In this document: positions 31,243 to 44,769 of the stretch, one piece after another | How the letters are laid out: each line of letters opens with the position of its first letter | Position numbering within the stretch: position 1 is the first letter of the stretch | Assembly (NCBI GenBank): GCA_045616445.1 | Contig: JAZLGR010000017.1 | Location: 2,202-66,201, forward strand | From: Candidatus Fimousia sp. | GTDB lineage: Bacteria; Bacillota; Clostridia; Lachnospirales; Lachnospiraceae | Direction of reading: 5' to 3' | DNA: 64,000 bases | The notes under the pieces: generated by a model | What the model saw: the letters and a program-made list of their open reading frames with translations, nothing else | What the model was told of the DNA's origin: nothing | The model's database searches: none | Made by a program: the position numbers and the translations under genes

Positions 31243-31410
31243 TAATGGTGCACCTCCTTGTAAATTTTTGAGTATGCCGCCTGCTTTGGATAATAAAAAA
31301 ACTCCCTGCTAAACCTAGACAGAGAGTGACATTAATCATCTTAAAACTTAATATCCTCGGTAGGTTGATCTACGTTACGCTTACGCACCTACTGTCTTCG
31401 GCAGTCTTAC
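31243..31410 (-). promoter_or_regulatory. ribosomal protein L10 leader (autoregulatory 5' UTR of rplJL) with attenuator hairpin
   Basis: About 165-nt structured leader between a TTGACA-17-TAATCT promoter and rplJ. It has stems such as TAGGT...ACCTA, and a CUCUCUG...CAGGGAG hairpin followed by U8 at 31294..31326. Confidence 0.6.
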
Positions 31411-31416
31411 CAAACA

Positions 31417-31445
31417 AGATTAACATTCATTCAATATATTGTCAA
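31417..31445 (-). promoter_or_regulatory. rplJL promoter
   Basis: The minus strand reads TTGACA, a 17-nt spacer, then TAATCT with an extended TG. Confidence 0.55.
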
Positions 31446-40391: not shown

Positions 40392-40883
40392 ATGAATTAT
40401 CATAATATCACAAAAGATGATATGTTAAACGGCGACGGTCTCCGTGTTGTATTATGGACGGCCGGCTGTACTCATAAATGCAAAAACTGTCAGAATCCAA
40501 TTACCTGGGATATTAAAGGCGGGCTCCCATTTGACGAAGCTGCGAAGGAAGAAATCTTCACAGAGCTTGCCAAGGACTATGTGTCTGGATTAACTCTCTC
40601 CGGCGGTGATCCGCTCCATCCAGCAAACTGCCAGGCAGTAACAGATCTTTCTGCTCAGGTAAAAGAGTTATTCCCTTCAAAGACAATCTGGCTTTACACT
40701 GGATTTGACTGGGATGAGATCAGCACACTTCCGATCCTGTCCTACGTTGACGTCGTTGTTGATGGCAATTATATCGATGAACTCTCCGACACCAAGCTTC
40801 ACTGGCGCGGCAGCTCCAATCAGCACGTCATCGATGTGAAAAAATCCTTAGAAGAAGGTACTATTGTACTTCACTGTCAGTAG
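40392..40883 (+). CDS. nrdG: anaerobic ribonucleotide reductase activating protein (radical SAM)
   Basis: MNYHNITKDDMLNGDGLRVVLWTAGCTHKCKNCQNP. Start ATG 40392 behind AAAAGGGGTG; the track start 40287 lies in the promoter region. Confidence 0.9.
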   Translation: MNYHNITKDDMLNGDGLRVVLWTAGCTHKCKNCQNPITWDIKGGLPFDEAAKEEIFTELAKDYVSGLTLSGGDPLHPANCQAVTDLSAQVKELFPSKTIWLYTGFDWDEISTLPILSYVDVVVDGNYIDELSDTKLHWRGSSNQHVIDVKKSLEEGTIVLHCQ

Positions 40884-41265
40884 GCGTATAATCAGCACTC
40901 CCAAAAGGGAGTGCTTCTTTTTTTATCTCTACACTGATGCTCTGCTTCTTCTGATCCGGGCTTCTGTAACACTGCGTCACCTTCACCTGAAACATCCCCA
41001 ACAGACGGCTGGTCAAACCATATTCCGCTTTCAGGTCTCCCTCTGATGAAATCTCTTCCGATAACATCCATTCGAAATAGTCTCTCATCTCCCGATTGCT
41101 CATAAATCCATAGTTCTGATTCATGCAAAGGGTCTGGTCCACACAGTGGGAAACCACCTCATAGAGGTCAACCTCCCTCACCATGCGGGCAGACAGATTC
41201 ATATTGATATAAGCTCCGTAGATGATCAGCAGTAGAAAAGAAAATCCTAATACCAGTTGTTTCAA
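40861..41265 (-). CDS. Tad-locus protein, N-terminally membrane-anchored (TadE/TadG-like role inferred)
   Basis: 134 aa with N-terminal hydrophobic segment LVLGFSFLLLIIYGAYI. Last gene of the tightly packed operon. Its 3' end overlaps nrdG by 23 nt. Confidence 0.55.
   Translation of the reverse strand: MKQLVLGFSFLLLIIYGAYINMNLSARMVREVDLYEVVSHCVDQTLCMNQNYGFMSNREMRDYFEWMLSEEISSEGDLKAEYGLTSRLLGMFQVKVTQCYRSPDQKKQSISVEIKKEALPFGSADYTPTDSEVQ
40894..40925 (+). terminator. intrinsic terminator of nrdG (lies inside the last Tad-locus ORF)
   Basis: AGCACTCCC/GGGAGTGCT stem with an AAAA loop, followed by TCTTTTTTTT. Confidence 0.8.
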
Positions 41266-41275
41266 GTCTTATCTC

Positions 41276-41434
41276 TTATCCCGCTGCACCGGACTGGGCA
41301 AAGAACACTGACATAATATTCGTCAGCGCATCCTGCAGCTGCGGCGCAAAGGACTTAGATGCAAAGGCACAAATTGCCAGAACAATAATAACCGTTACAA
41401 CAACCGATCCATATTCCGCTACAAATTCTCTCAA
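41276..41434 (-). CDS. Flp-like mini-pilin 3 (52 aa)
   Basis: Absent from the track. The TTG start is 1 nt after the stop of the upstream gene, with AAAGGGG 7 nt upstream. Translation: MREFVAEYGSVVVTVIIVLAICAFASKSFAPQLQDALTNIMSVFFAQSGAAG. Confidence 0.6.
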   Translation of the reverse strand: MREFVAEYGSVVVTVIIVLAICAFASKSFAPQLQDALTNIMSVFFAQSGAAG

Positions 41435-41435
41435 A

Positions 41436-41798
41436 TTATATCCCCTTTCTTAATACTGAATATCCCACAACAGAATATTCTTTCGTTTCTTTCAAAAATG
41501 GCAGTGTGACGTGGTAAGTCAGGATCACCTGTGCCATGGGCTTCCCATCCCTCTCAAACCGTTTGGTAGAAAGTCCATAGTGGGCCCGTCTGGCTTCCTC
41601 TTCAAATTTCCTGCAGTTTTCCTCGGCATAATCCGAGTGTTCTAGCATGGACACCACCCTGTGGTGATACTGCTTAGCTGTCCCGACTGTCACAGCCGCA
41701 GCATAGACGGAAAATACCAGATTGACCCCGGCCACGATCAGTATCAGGCTGACTGCCATCTCTATCCCAATTCTCATACTCCTTCTCCCTGGATGCAT
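41436..41798 (-). CDS. Tad-locus protein, N-terminally membrane-anchored (pseudopilin/TadE-like role inferred)
   Basis: 120-aa ORF with hydrophobic segment IEMAVSLILIVAGVNLVFSVYAAAV. An alternative and better SD-supported start is ATG 41777 (MRIGIEM). Confidence 0.55.
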   Translation of the reverse strand: MHPGRRSMRIGIEMAVSLILIVAGVNLVFSVYAAAVTVGTAKQYHHRVVSMLEHSDYAEENCRKFEEEARRAHYGLSTKRFERDGKPMAQVILTYHVTLPFLKETKEYSVVGYSVLRKGI

Positions 41799-41808
41799 CC
41801 TTCTATTC

Positions 41809-42123
41809 TTAGTGCGTATATCCGGAGATTCCCTGCTTCATGACAAATCCAATCACAGGCAGGCTGACACGGTAACGAAGACTGACGAATGCGTCATCTC
41901 CCTCCTTCGCCACATAGATCTCATAGCCCTCCTTTATGCCTCTTTCGCAGACTTTGTCGATGACGTTCTCCCCGCAGTTCCCTTCTTCTAGTGTTTCGAT
42001 CACTTCCCGGTAGGTATGCCATGCGCGGTAGGTATCCACGCATATGCCATTCATCCCCACCATCAGGGTAAACAGGAATAACAGCAGAGAAAAGCCCGTC
42101 AGCACCGAGATCGGCAGCTTCAT
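41809..42123 (-). CDS. Tad-locus protein, N-terminally membrane-anchored
   Basis: 104 aa with N-terminal LPISVLTGFSLLLFLFTLMVGM. The ATG is 3 nt after the stop of mini-pilin 2. Confidence 0.55.
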   Translation of the reverse strand: MKLPISVLTGFSLLLFLFTLMVGMNGICVDTYRAWHTYREVIETLEEGNCGENVIDKVCERGIKEGYEIYVAKEGDDAFVSLRYRVSLPVIGFVMKQGISGYTH

Positions 42124-42126
42124 CTG

Positions 42127-42267
42127 TTATAACCCGCACAGTCCGGCGATAAAGTACTTCTCTACCACGCCAAAAATCGACATCAGCCTGTAGATTCCGC
42201 CAATTATGCCAGTTCCAATCAGAACTGCTGCCACGTATGCACCATATTCATCCAGTAACATCTTCAA
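42127..42267 (-). CDS. Flp-like mini-pilin 2 (46 aa from TTG 42267; 44 aa from ATG 42261)
   Basis: Absent from the track. GGAG lies 8 nt before the TTG. Translation: MKMLLDEYGAYVAAVLIGTGIIGGIYRLMSIFGVVEKYFIAGLCGL. Confidence 0.6.
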   Translation of the reverse strand: MKMLLDEYGAYVAAVLIGTGIIGGIYRLMSIFGVVEKYFIAGLCGL

Positions 42268-42287
42268 ATTCTCATCTCCAAAAAAAA

Positions 42288-42392
42288 TCAAAACAACGAC
42301 AATCCGGCCAGTACACGGTATCCTTCCACAATGGCCAGTGCGACGATAAAGAAAAAGATCGTCTCTCCATACATCTCAAAAAATGTCTTCAT
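42288..42392 (-). CDS. Flp-like mini-pilin 1 (34 aa)
   Basis: Absent from the track. The ATG overlaps the stop of the platform gene (ATGA). Translation: MKTFFEMYGETIFFFIVALAIVEGYRVLAGLSLF. Confidence 0.55.
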   Translation of the reverse strand: MKTFFEMYGETIFFFIVALAIVEGYRVLAGLSLF

Positions 42393-43738
42393 AAATTACT
42401 CCACAACTGAAACATCACGACAAATAGTACCGACATATCCATCATAATCTTGGCAGTGCCCAAAAACATGGGCATAAAAAAGAGAAATCCATAGGTTCCC
42501 AGCTCATCATCATTCTCCAGGCGTTCTGCCCGGTCTGTGAGAATGATATTGCGCTGCATGATTGCGCCCAGCTGAGTCTGGGCATCTTCTGTCCCCGTGT
42601 TGGTATAAGCATAGATCATCTTCATGGTGGAATGTACCTCCGGCACCGAAAGCTCCTTTAAAAAGTGATTATATGGCTTTATGGATACCGGATCCTCCAT
42701 AATCTCTTCTAACAGCCGGTTCATATCCACCTTCATCACCTCCGGCGTATCCGGAAGTGCTTCCAACAGACAGCGGTAAACATTATCTGAAGATAAGCGC
42801 AGGGTCATGGTACGGAGCCATCTTGGAAACTGCTTCTCCACTTCCCGCTCCAGGCGCTTCTTCGCCCTTGGATACTGGAGTGGATTGGCTCTCACATGAT
42901 TCCAGTCTTTCGCCATCTCTTCCTTCTTCATCGCCTTTGTTACGCCAAACCAGCTACCTCGCAGCTTCACCTGAGTGATGATATATAATGAATAGAATAA
43001 GAGGTATAAAAGGGTAGATGCCAACTGATATGGTGTACCCGCGAGGGGTGCACGCATAGCATCATTCTGGGTCAGCACGCGAAACAGGATGGTACAAAGG
43101 CCAAGAACAGCAAACATACTCAGTTCAATCTTCTTCTGCATCTGTCTGCGTTCCTTCTGGAAGAGATAAACCCTCTCCTTATAAAGCTTCAGATCTTCGA
43201 TCAGGGTGAATAACGCCCCCTGATACCGTCCGCCGAAGGCCTCCACACGGATAAAGAAATCATGCATGATCTTAAGCCGCTCACAGGGATATCTCTTCTC
43301 AAATCTGCGAAACACCCTCTCATAGGACAGGTCTTCCTCAGCGAATACTGCGTCGATCATTCCACTAATCTCCTCATGCAGCTGCCCTTCTGTGGCTTCA
43401 CAAACCTCCTCCAGGGCAGAAATAATCTTCGGATGCTTGCTAAATGCATACATCATCTGCTCCATATACTCTGTAACCATTGAAAAAAGGGATTGTTCGA
43501 ACAAATATCGAAACTGTTGAATAATAATGAAGGGAGTCATGATTACAATCGCACCGAGCAGGATGAAGATTCCTCCCATGGCCAGATAATTCAGCTTGCC
43601 AAGAAGTATGACCAACAGCATGGAGAGTATCAGCCGAAGCAGATAGCTCTTCAGGGAATAATGGAACCCATATTCCTCGATTCTTGTCGCTAAATGCTTA
43701 AAACGAATAGAACGGAATATAGATACCATGCTTCTCAA
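42389..43738 (-). CDS. two-domain GspF/PilC/TadB-TadC-like pilus platform membrane protein
   Basis: 449 aa with two successive units, each a cytoplasmic helical bundle plus TM helices. The second unit starts near QFPRWLRTMTLRLSSDNVYRCLLEALPDTPE, which fits the T2SSF template. It overlaps the ATPase gene by 41 nt. Confidence 0.7.
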   Translation of the reverse strand: MRSMVSIFRSIRFKHLATRIEEYGFHYSLKSYLLRLILSMLLVILLGKLNYLAMGGIFILLGAIVIMTPFIIIQQFRYLFEQSLFSMVTEYMEQMMYAFSKHPKIISALEEVCEATEGQLHEEISGMIDAVFAEEDLSYERVFRRFEKRYPCERLKIMHDFFIRVEAFGGRYQGALFTLIEDLKLYKERVYLFQKERRQMQKKIELSMFAVLGLCTILFRVLTQNDAMRAPLAGTPYQLASTLLYLLFYSLYIITQVKLRGSWFGVTKAMKKEEMAKDWNHVRANPLQYPRAKKRLEREVEKQFPRWLRTMTLRLSSDNVYRCLLEALPDTPEVMKVDMNRLLEEIMEDPVSIKPYNHFLKELSVPEVHSTMKMIYAYTNTGTEDAQTQLGAIMQRNIILTDRAERLENDDELGTYGFLFFMPMFLGTAKIMMDMSVLFVVMFQLWSNL

Positions 43739-44657
43739 ATTTCTCCCGGAGATTCTCTGGAAGATTGATCAGATTCATCTCATCTTCGTCGCACAAGATA
43801 CGTACCTGGCCTGTCACCTTGTCAAATGCACCGATCTGGGCGATAAACCGACTATGATCCCGCCTCTGACAGACCATAATGGCTATGTCAAGAAAGCCAA
43901 ATACGTCTCTTCGAATTCGCTCTGCAGTCAGACTGTCTGCTACCATATTGACAATACGGTCCGGTATCTTGCGCACATCATCGGTATGGACGGTAGTAAT
44001 ACAGTAATGTCCCGTGGTCAGGGATTCCATCAGATGTCTCACTTCATCTCCCCTCGCTTCCGAGAGTAGAATCCAGTCCGGCATCTGTCTCAAACTGGCC
44101 TTGATCGCCTGGGTATAGGTAAAATGATTCTCATCTACCTTCAGTTCCACACTGTCCCTGTCTGGATGAATGCTGCTAAAATGGATCTCTAAATTATCTT
44201 CAATGGTAATGACACGGTCACGCTCCGGAATATAATTGGTCAGAAATTTCAGTAACTCTGTCTTACCGCTTCCTGTCTGTCCGCAGATGACGATATTCAT
44301 ATGTGCCATGACGCACTGCTTCAGAAAATCCAGTTCCTGCTGGCTGCAATAGCACTGTGATATTAAGTTTTCTTCTTTTAGTCGTTGAATTGGTGGTGAT
44401 TTTCGAATAGAAATAGATCTACCACTCCTTGCATAGGCCTCATGAATGATAGAAATCCTCAAGCCGTTAGCCTCCGCCTCCAAGAGTGGCATATGCTTGT
44501 TGAAATTAAGACTGACAACATTGCTTACGTGGGAAGTAAACTGATTGATAAATGCTGTCTCTAAGAAAATGTCAGGAGAATATCTCCCCTTCGTCAGATG
44601 TTCGATCCAGAGCCTCCGCCCATTCCAGTTAATGTCGGTGATTTCCTCGTCCATCAC
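43698..44657 (-). CDS. CpaF/TadA/VirB11-type secretion ATPase (short form); coding region probably extends to about 44708
   Basis: Walker A GQTGSGKT, Asp box VITIEDNLE, Walker B DWILLSEARG, His box ITTVHTDD. The in-frame upstream sequence YLSEEQFGPLYPFV looks like the conserved GPL-x-P-L motif, but no ATG/GTG/TTG is available there. Confidence 0.8.
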   Translation of the reverse strand: MMDEEITDINWNGRRLWIEHLTKGRYSPDIFLETAFINQFTSHVSNVVSLNFNKHMPLLEAEANGLRISIIHEAYARSGRSISIRKSPPIQRLKEENLISQCYCSQQELDFLKQCVMAHMNIVICGQTGSGKTELLKFLTNYIPERDRVITIEDNLEIHFSSIHPDRDSVELKVDENHFTYTQAIKASLRQMPDWILLSEARGDEVRHLMESLTTGHYCITTVHTDDVRKIPDRIVNMVADSLTAERIRRDVFGFLDIAIMVCQRRDHSRFIAQIGAFDKVTGQVRILCDEDEMNLINLPENLREKFEKHGIYIPFYSF

Positions 44658-44740
44658 AAAGGGATAAAGGGGACCAAACTGTTCCTCCGATAAATAGTAA
44701 TTTGTTATATAACCTTCCTCCTTTCTCTTGATATGGTACT

Positions 44741-44769
44741 ATTATACCTATATTGGTAATTACTGTCAA
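44741..44769 (-). promoter_or_regulatory. consensus sigma-A type promoter of the Tad-like operon
   Basis: The minus strand reads TTGACA (44769..44764), an exact 17-nt spacer and TATAAT (44746..44741). GGAGG SD lies at 44721..44717. Confidence 0.7.

Follow-up and report, generated by a model that had tools for sequence, protein, structure and literature searches.

The 64,000-nucleotide (64-kb) stretch of DNA from Candidatus Fimousia sp. analyzed in this study, referred to below as the window, contains an operon of eight open reading frames (ORFs) on its minus strand, extending from position 44657 (or 44708) down to 40861. With slightly better than even confidence, this locus is regarded as a chromosomal, minimal member of an undescribed Lachnospiraceae branch of the type IV filament (Tad-like) superfamily, featuring subunits that are made without a leader peptide. 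In the 5′ to 3′ direction, the operon encodes a secretion ATPase, a membrane protein of 449 amino acids (aa), mini-proteins of 34 and 46 aa, a 104-aa protein, a protein of 113 (originally 120) aa, a 52-aa mini-protein, and a 134-aa protein. Filament assembly, an absence of subunit processing, the roles of the subunits, and an adhesive function are predicted here from the genes. The first-pass annotation of this DNA had suggested that the locus could be a filament or secretion module of Gram-positive bacteria, distinct and poorly described, that departs from the TadZABC-Flp-TadEFG layout. Our results support this proposal, formation of a filament being predicted, and all eight ORFs were confirmed, intact, at the positions given previously.

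Leaderless mini-proteins and the search for Tad partners

The three mini-proteins of the window represent three length classes of the family (approximately 34 aa, approximately 46 aa, and 52 to 66 aa with a Flp-like amphipathic tail), with one member each, and these classes are mutually homologous (hhalign P 95–97%). The class 1 gene (42288..42392, minus strand; 34 aa, MKTFFEMYGE...) starts within an ATGA overlap with the stop codon of the 449-aa protein gene, has an in-frame TAA two codons upstream, and possesses orthologues in the related loci L004, L001, and L012. The class 2 gene (42127..42267, minus strand; 46 aa, MKMLLDEYG...GLCGL) begins with a TTG at 42267, exactly six codons before Glu7. 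Among 36 unique class 2 sequences, 18 feature a cysteine within the last four residues (...C, ...CG, or ...CGG; ...GLCGL in the window), which hints at a disulfide or another modification. For class 3 (41276..41434, minus strand; 52 aa, MREFVAEYGSVVV...), the start is likewise a TTG six codons ahead of Glu7, and the reading frame is closed by a stop 11 codons upstream. This protein is 85% identical to its orthologue in L004, its gene stands upstream of the ATPase gene in distant loci, as flp does, and one cluster representative of the mini-proteins, a Muricomes sequence, bears the source name ‘Flp pilus assembly pilin Flp’. Class 3 is the most Flp-like of the mini-proteins and a candidate for the major subunit.

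To describe the N-termini, approximately 88 related loci (including some duplicates) were scanned for the motif [E/Q/M]-[Y/H/F]-G followed by a hydrophobic stretch, which yielded 139 instances. The Glu position is preceded by a start codon at a distance of exactly six codons in 134 cases. An in-frame stop immediately precedes this start in 12 of them, and a stop is found a few codons upstream in many others. The consensus deduced from 95 unique short mini-proteins is M1-[K/E/D/R]-x-[F/I/V/L]-[I/L/M]-x-E7-[Y/H/F]8-G9, followed by about 20 hydrophobic residues, with Gly at position 9 in all 95 sequences and Glu at position 7 in 85. Position 2, the would-be −1 residue, is occupied by K, E, D, or R, but in no case by Gly. 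The mini-proteins carry no leader peptide. They would correspond to the mature ‘EYG’ N-terminus of Flp extended by two residues, with neither a leader nor a Gly at −1, and so processing by an A24 prepilin peptidase would be neither possible nor needed. That the mini-proteins are pilins is inferred from their motif, size, and partners. The claim of Flp-like, near-leaderless mini-pilins in the first-pass annotation agrees with the EYG motif and with the uniform start positions. Lys2 as a conserved charge partner of the Glu was ruled out, position 2 being variable among the four charged residues.

Mini-protein sequences with the motif-based starts exist in the NCBI database under the name ‘hypothetical protein’, and the same N-terminal module heads proteins of approximately 130 to 170 aa with a globular domain in most loci. 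Weak Pfam matches of the mini-proteins were obtained for Flp1_like (best E-value 0.0044), Arch_flagellin, Flp_Fap, and DUF4244. A reading of the mini-proteins as leaderless bacteriocins was rejected, since their partners are a T2SSE ATPase and a T2SSF-like protein.

A motif scan of the window revealed no A24 (GxGDxK) membrane ORF, no ParA-type (KGGxGK[ST]) ORF, and no sortase, as the first-pass annotation had stated for the A24 peptidase, a TadZ-type ParA protein, and sortases. In agreement with this for TadV and TadZ, phmmer searches with proteobacterial TadV (two queries), TadZ, CpaB, TadE, and TadF detected no relevant homologue either in the window or within 10 kb on either side of the approximately 88 loci, no secretin query having been made. 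The window proteins also gave no Pfam match to TadE, and no canonical tadV-tadZ-flp set was found beside the locus in relatives with contigs extending 10 kb in either direction. An Rce1-like CPBP intramembrane protease gene (L007/L008, 13303–13977) is situated inside the Hungatella hathewayi operon, which adjoins prophage tail genes, and similar CPBP proteases are encoded approximately 9 kb away in L022, L027, and L080. As a substitute maturase, this protease was rejected, because it occurs within the operon only in the Hungatella locus and is not a core part.

The ATPase, the proposed platform, and the anchored proteins

The first gene encodes a CpaF/VirB11-clade secretion ATPase (43698..44708, minus strand; Pfam T2SSE, E-value 4.9e-31), which is probably 336 aa long when started at an ATA at 44708, compared with 319 aa from the GTG at 44657. 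It is the only one of the eight window proteins that matches any curated family, the other seven being devoid of a Pfam family. All four motifs quoted previously (GQTGSGKT, ITIEDNLE, DWILLSEARG, and TTVHT) are present. Its best NCBIfam matches are VirB11, a TadA-like conjugal ATPase, TrbB, and FlaI, all scoring far below the curated cut-offs (for VirB11, 136 bits versus a cut-off of 250). The ComGA model reached 75 bits compared with the 136 bits of VirB11, and the PilB and GspE models likewise scored much lower than the best matches. Among solved structures, the best relative is Caulobacter CpaF (88 bits, residues 4–286 of the window ATPase versus 158–447 of 501), followed by VirB11/HP0525 (80 bits). 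As the N-terminal region of CpaF, comprising about 150 residues, has no counterpart here, the protein is best described, on its sequence, as a putative CpaF/VirB11-clade motor minus this region. Homologues of about 50% identity are numerous in Lachnospiraceae, their source names being no more specific than ‘CpaF/VirB11 family’ or ‘ATPase, T2SS/T4P/T4SS family’.

Ahead of the annotated GTG/ATG start of the ATPase, the in-frame codons specify a conserved (K/E)EQFGP(L)(Y/F)P sequence, which reads EEQFGPLYPF in the window. The in-frame ATA at 44708 is located 8 nt after a strong AAGGAGG (region 44706–44726, minus strand), and each of the seven nrdD-linked loci of this clade has an ATA or ATT here, an ATG being found at about the same place in loci that are more distant. 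Because both the upstream in-frame stretch and the ATA/ATT following AAGGAGG are conserved, the ATPase most likely comprises 336 rather than 319 aa and starts at a conserved non-canonical codon. This conservation suggests a deliberately weak or regulated initiation. Gene callers assigned lengths of 318 to 398 aa to the closest homologues. The secretion ATPase, called short previously, is hence probably less short than assumed. After a second GGAGGAA, an out-of-frame mini-ORF of seven codons (TTG GTC CCC TTT ATC CCT TTG TGA; 44654–44677, minus strand) lies inside the probable true coding region, and its stop overlaps the annotated ATG of the ATPase (TGATG); it may represent chance or a coupling device.

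The second gene (42389..43738, minus strand) encodes a polytopic membrane protein of 449 aa, which we read as a fused TadB-TadC-type platform with two repeats and only remote similarity to T2SSF. The N-terminal half was related to the C-terminal half by hhalign (E-value 1.7e-4 over 97 columns), and the C-terminal half to TadB/TadC proteins encoded on Sodalis and Burkholderia plasmids (P 77%, E-value 2e-5), the corresponding value for the N-terminal half being only P 14%. Moreover, the N-terminal and C-terminal halves resemble the plasmid proteins h1 and h2, respectively (P 92–95%, E-values 3e-8 to 6e-7), which are the first and second membrane proteins following the VirB11-like ATPase on plasmids of Paraclostridium, Listeria, and Bacillus. 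When 77 diverse members of the platform family were scanned singly, 23 matched Pfam T2SSF (best E-value 1.8e-7), by far the commonest family obtained. The comparison with T2SSF advised by the first-pass annotation hence gave matches for part of the family, but not for the window protein itself; the two-domain GspF/TadBC-like architecture claimed there is supported by the repeats and the remote T2SSF similarity. An AlphaFold2 (AF2) model of the platform (pLDDT 82) consists entirely of helices, those spanning the membrane being interspersed with two cytoplasmic domains that are likewise helical. A profile search of the PDB with the platform alignment returned chance matches only, and a word-index search found 18 homologues, all of them unnamed. 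Residues 17–28 (approximately 43655–43690), in the N-terminal cytoplasmic part, carry the conserved motif I..YG(Y/F).YS, in which I20, Y23, G24, and Y27 are invariant in an alignment of 15 sequences. It was modelled as a beta-hairpin, is recognizable in the plasmid h1 proteins (..AYG..), and may represent an ATPase-docking element.

Three further genes encode small proteins anchored by an N-terminal hydrophobic helix. The 104-aa protein (41809..42123, minus strand) combines this helix with a small alpha/beta domain, lacks the conserved Glu, and is a paralogue of the 113-aa protein (hhalign against the 113-aa family, P 99.5%, E-value 4.7e-23). No match to Pfam, NCBIfam, PHROG, or PADLOC was found for it. 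The 113-aa protein (41436..41777, minus strand) corresponds to the ORF of 120 aa reaching to 41798 in the first-pass annotation. Its gene most likely begins at the ATG at 41777, which matches the length of the orthologues. In this class, the N-terminus reads M-[K/R]-x-x-[I/V]-E6, with Glu6 invariant in 13 sequences. The AF2 model, built on 12 sequences (pLDDT 88), shows a helix (residues 2–47) followed by a second, short one and a sheet of three strands, an arrangement that resembles a small pilin in outline; a word-index search with this protein returned two homologues only. The 134-aa protein, encoded by the last gene (40861..41265, minus strand), has orthologues of 120 to 141 aa holding the same position in six loci (L001, L004, L010, L012, L020, and L007), and a weak hhalign match (P 25%) connects it to a protein of approximately 125 aa in plasmid modules. 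The anchored proteins of 104, 120, and 134 aa listed in the first-pass annotation were thus found, but are better described as pilin-shaped, two of them being paralogous and one featuring an invariant Glu6 and a likely length of 113 aa.

The operon is preceded by a sigma-70-type promoter, TTGACA-17 nt-TATAAT (44741..44769, minus strand), which matches the consensus in 12 of 12 positions, as claimed originally, and is the sole such match between 40600 and 45000. Its TTGACA and TATAAT-like hexamers are kept in the orthologous loci L004, L001, and L010, and it follows a terminator-like hairpin (44817–44783) that closes the upstream aminotransferase gene. With the start codons chosen previously, the intercistronic distances of −41, −4 (ATGA), 20, 3, 10, 1, and 10 nt were reproduced; the likelier start of the 113-aa gene changes one of these gaps to 31 nt. 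The GC content of the operon (0.46–0.47) is near the window average (approximately 0.43). The flanking nrdG/nrdD and aminotransferase genes were confirmed, and the same synteny is maintained in relatives with platforms of 50–73% identity. At its 3′ end, the last gene shares 23 nt with the 3′ end of the convergent nrdG, and the terminator-like hairpin of nrdG (40894–40915) falls within the codons for the C-terminal tail of the 134-aa protein. That the window represents core chromosome is shown by a ribosomal protein L10 leader (Rfam RF00557, 71.7 bits; 31286–31419, minus strand) approximately 9.5 kb from the 3′ end of the operon. Elsewhere in the window, positions 56001–58000 exhibit a GC content of 0.30–0.31, compared with approximately 0.43, and a strongly negative GC skew; this stretch may be a horizontally acquired segment.

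Family, proposed mechanism, and alternative explanations

A platform profile was searched against 1.84 billion representative proteins. The platform family comprises 884 clusters at 50% identity, 389 of them at E-values up to 1e-30, with mostly about 500 aa. A scan of one genome per species with the 15-sequence platform alignment returned 80 loci, almost all from Lachnospiraceae (Roseburia, Lachnospira/Eubacterium, Anaerostipes, Muricomes, and Faecalicatena), and several genomes harbor two to three loci. In 78 of the 80, the platform gene directly follows the end of an ATPase homologue. Two or three paralogous loci, each with its own large downstream protein, occur in single Roseburia genomes (L055 and L083, both on contig JAETOE010000006.1, and L066; L056/L057; L063/L072). 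One contig labelled ‘Thermoguttaceae bacterium LCP21S3_D1’ (L023) features the same locus architecture as Roseburia amylophila (L024) and is probably derived from a mislabelled or contaminated assembly. The usual order in the family is a small Flp-like gene, the ATPase, the platform, a protein of approximately 111 aa, two mini-proteins, proteins of approximately 160 and 200 aa, a giant protein, and a protein of approximately 122 aa. Of the 64 loci with sufficient flanking sequence, 48 have an ORF of 650 aa or more in the 6 kb downstream. The giant proteins have signal-peptide-like N-termini and faint adhesin-type repeats (Flg_new, Chlam_PMP, and LRR_5).

Of the nrdD-linked loci, L010 and L012 possess genes for proteins of approximately 160 and 870 aa, and L001, L011, and L014 are devoid of the giant gene. 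In the window and in L004/L009, both genes are missing, and 3 nt are left between the neighboring genes. The window copy is accordingly the minimal form of a larger family. All eight ORFs are intact in two species, the relative L004 being 73–79% identical, and the dN/dS values against L004 (ATPase 0.10, platform 0.09, mini-protein 1 0.10, mini-protein 2 0.26, and 113-aa protein 0.08) are rough, as dS is saturated. The locus is intact and under purifying selection, which argues against decay. Those components that were looked up in the NCBI database are named ‘hypothetical protein’, with one record being named N-acetyltransferase, and no description of the platform/mini-pilin family, which is common in gut Clostridia, was found in the literature.

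By analogy with Tad, Com, and archaeal filaments, a mechanism can be proposed in which a hexamer of the CpaF/VirB11-type ATPase at the cytoplasmic face would turn or pump the single fused two-repeat platform. The platform would lift subunits consisting of a single helix out of the membrane and add them to a helical polymer, either a thin Flp-like fibre or a short pseudopilus. The 52-aa class would probably serve as the major subunit, and the 34- and 46-aa classes together with the 104-, 113-, and 134-aa proteins as minor, priming, or tip subunits, the pilin-shaped accessory proteins priming or capping the fibre. The conserved Glu (position 7, or 6 in the 113-aa class) would neutralize the N-terminus of the neighboring subunit within the hydrophobic core. 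As the subunits would be made mature, neither a peptidase nor a TadZ-type localiser would be required. Most relatives carry the subunit of approximately 160 aa and a giant surface protein, and so the machine probably displays or exports an adhesin. In the full-size loci, the fibre would carry or export this giant surface protein, and the window copy would form a bare fibre only.

Several observations weigh against this reading of the locus as a leaderless type IV filament system. Most loci add a pilin-like protein of approximately 160 aa and a surface protein of 800 to 1600 aa, both of which are missing from the window copy, and together with an ATPase gene without a canonical start this implies that the copy may be weakly expressed. 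Prepilin leaders are basic, and the charge of the leader is generally thought to orient pilins in the membrane. The first nine residues of the mini-proteins are, by contrast, net acidic (mean −1.6, with 94% at −1 or lower), and thus their topology may differ from that of true pilins. Comparison of each mini-protein class with a Flp profile by hhalign gave no match, although the target, with two sequences, was too thin for a firm verdict. The window platform matched neither Pfam nor NCBIfam at E-values up to 1, and a Foldseek search of its AF2 model against the PDB yielded no hit at an E-value ≤ 0.001 and no GspF/PilC chain among the top 50. For the model of the 113-aa protein, Foldseek returned nothing significant, the pseudopilin EpsI appearing at rank 49 with a probability of 0.07. 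Finally, only 64 kb of the genome are visible, and genes for an A24 peptidase or some other protease may lie outside this stretch.

Among the alternatives, a piston-like pseudopilus or secretion/display machine, as in type II secretion systems (T2SS) or Com, would push a giant surface protein through the cell wall, and would here be orphaned or have its cargo elsewhere. The large downstream ORFs (650 aa or more) that accompany 48 of 64 loci, their signal-peptide-like N-termini and weak adhesin-type repeats, and the plasmid modules located beside huge surface proteins (the thioester-domain proteins of L089, L092, and L093, and the 1416-aa protein of pAW63) are consistent with such a machine. 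However, the window and its nearest relative keep theirs under purifying selection without a giant gene, which is also absent from L001, L011, and L014, and a short pseudopilus and a long pilus are not distinguishable at the sequence level. We consider this explanation unlikely, although by no means negligible. A rather small chance is given to a decaying or silent remnant that has lost the large pilin, the adhesin, and the canonical start of its ATPase. The window and L004/L009 are indeed reduced relative to the sister loci L010 and L012, and no ATG, GTG, or TTG is present at the conserved start of the ATPase. Since the ATA/ATT is conserved in seven loci including full-length ones, it appears to be a feature and not a lesion, and the perfect consensus promoter, the eight intact ORFs in two species, and the dN/dS values of 0.08–0.10 for the ATPase, the platform, mini-protein 1, and the 113-aa protein also argue against decay.

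An ordinary Tad/Flp system with tadV and tadZ elsewhere in the genome, whose mini-proteins are processed normally, appears very improbable. It would agree with the limited portion of the genome that is visible, and some known filament systems (MSH) without their own peptidase borrow one (PMC6668835). There is, however, nothing to cleave, as translation starts six codons before Glu7, often directly after a stop, and the would-be −1 residue is never Gly; A24 and TadZ proteins were not found within 10 kb of the approximately 88 loci, and the platform is far from TadB/TadC. Alternatively, the mini-proteins could be membrane-resident accessory subunits or peptides, oriented with the N-terminus outside, of an ATPase-driven complex with another function. 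Their acidic N-termini with positive residues after the hydrophobic helix, the missing statistical support for homology to Flp, and the 34-aa class, which is barely longer than one membrane span, point in this direction. This possibility is nevertheless judged very improbable indeed, because E-[YHF]-G followed by about 20 hydrophobic residues matches the mature N-terminus of Flp, the ‘160-aa’ class fuses the same module to globular domains of approximately 130 aa, as in true pilins, and a T2SSE ATPase with a T2SSF-like platform is a pair known from filament systems. The chance that the locus belongs to a VirB11-containing type IV secretion machinery serving conjugative DNA transfer is practically negligible. 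VirB11 is the top NCBIfam match of the ATPase, and the module is homologous to VirB11-like clusters on plasmids of the pAW63/pXO2 type and of Listeria, Bacillus, and Paraclostridium. Yet no VirB4, VirD4, or coupling-type Walker A protein is encoded in the window, its other P-loop proteins being ABC ATPases, FtsH-like, and UvrA/B-like. Moreover, the neighboring genes are housekeeping genes with synteny conserved across species, and the ribosomal L10 leader is only some 9.5 kb away.

Two further candidates were discarded. A SpoIIIA sporulation channel was rejected, as none of the eight proteins matched the SpoIIIAA-AH families of Pfam and NCBIfam at E-values up to 1 and the ATPase is T2SSE/CpaF-like. 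A phage or anti-phage defence module was ruled out by PHROG and PADLOC searches, which gave weak P-loop matches of the ATPase only, and by the presence of merely three relatives among 2.9 million viral contigs (IMG/VR), which are probably host flanks.

If the leaderless filament reading is correct, subunits translated in mature form would break the prepilin-peptidase rule of type IV filaments and would represent a natural experiment on the purpose of leader cleavage with respect to membrane orientation, N-terminal charge, and methylation. A large Lachnospiraceae family that is often multicopy and usually found beside giant surface proteins would also be a plausible factor for gut colonization or aggregation, and its link to the VirB11-like clusters of pAW63/pXO2-type plasmids suggests a role for unexplained Gram-positive conjugation genes. 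More speculatively, and with rather less than even confidence, we propose that Lachnospiraceae chromosomes and, more distantly, Gram-positive tra regions hold a separate class of filament machines polymerizing leaderless, unprocessed mini-pilins with acidic tips. This class would be the first of the superfamily to need no prepilin peptidase and would present giant adhesins for gut colonization or mating-pair formation.

Comparison with known filament systems

Type IV filaments are usually described by four core parts, namely a pilin that has a hydrophobic helix at its N-terminus and a conserved Glu, an extension ATPase, a polytopic platform, and the prepilin peptidase. At the locus described here, the ATPase is present, the platform is remote, pilin-like subunits with the Glu were recognized by motif, and neither the peptidase nor its site was found. 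The Com system and other monoderm type IV filaments (ComGA-ComGB-ComGC) are similarly compact machines of single-membrane bacteria, secretin-free and built from one ATPase, one two-repeat platform, and one major and several minor subunits. However, the window ATPase belongs to the CpaF/VirB11 clade and not to the PilB/ComGA clade. Com pilins carry class III leaders, which are cleaved by ComC.

Similarity to Tad/Flp systems (CpaF-CpaG/H-PilA of Caulobacter; TadA-TadB/C-Flp1 of Aggregatibacter) is more extensive. CpaF is the best solved relative of the window ATPase, the platform is remotely T2SSF-like, and the family subunits of 34 to 66 aa feature Glu-Tyr-Gly followed by a hydrophobic helix, which is the hallmark of Flp. 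In addition, the small pilin-shaped accessory proteins parallel TadE/TadF, and a Flp-like gene is positioned upstream of the ATPase gene in distant loci of the family. In contrast to Tad, the mini-proteins of the window have no leader or Gly at −1, and their Glu is located at position 7 counted from Met1 rather than at position 5 after cleavage. TadV, TadZ, CpaB, RcpA, and TadD/G were not found at the window locus, no query aimed at a secretin having been made, a single chain too divergent for recognition by Pfam takes the place of TadB and TadC, the ATPase is devoid of the first approximately 150 residues of CpaF, and three classes of mini-subunits occur. To judge from these features, the locus would work like Tad, yet it appears to fall outside this group, having no processed Flp prepilin, TadV, or TadZ.

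Imam et al. (2011) reported clostridial tad-like loci, including loci of Lachnospiraceae, with Tad-clade ATPases and no recognizable prepilin signal (PMC3244431). As these were described with tadC, tadV, tadZ, and rcpC, none of which is present at the window locus, they are set apart from it by description only. Tad systems in Clostridia were also found by Denise et al. (2019) with their own protein profiles (PMC6668835).

The VirB11-like tra clusters of Gram-positive plasmids (pAW63/pXO2/pBT9727 type; Listeria, Bacillus velezensis, and Paraclostridium) encode ATPases of approximately 30–32% identity to that of the window (best tblastn E-value 2e-43). A homologous module is located beside thioester-domain or giant surface proteins and VirD4 on plasmids of Paraclostridium (L089), Listeria (L092), and Bacillus velezensis (L093), as well as in pAW63 (CDS 17–26). 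It consists of an anchored protein of approximately 125 aa, a VirB11-like ATPase, two membrane proteins corresponding to the halves of the 449-aa protein, an anchored protein of approximately 120 aa, and mini-proteins of 47 to 50 aa with short N-termini. In the PLSDB records, the module proteins other than the ATPase are annotated as hypothetical, and the pAW63 cluster has been described as VirB11 with ‘conserved hypothetical’ neighbors beside a 1416-aa surface protein (PMC1196294). Differences from the window are the split platform, the longer ATPases (405–444 aa), the mini-protein motif MSFEMNADRS..G, and the location with VirB4/VirD4 conjugation genes; the cross-matches between the small proteins are weak (P approximately 25%). 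Judged by the shared ATPase, the two halves of the platform, the anchored proteins, the mini-proteins, and the adjacent huge surface proteins, these plasmid clusters appear to be the nearest recognizable relatives of the locus.

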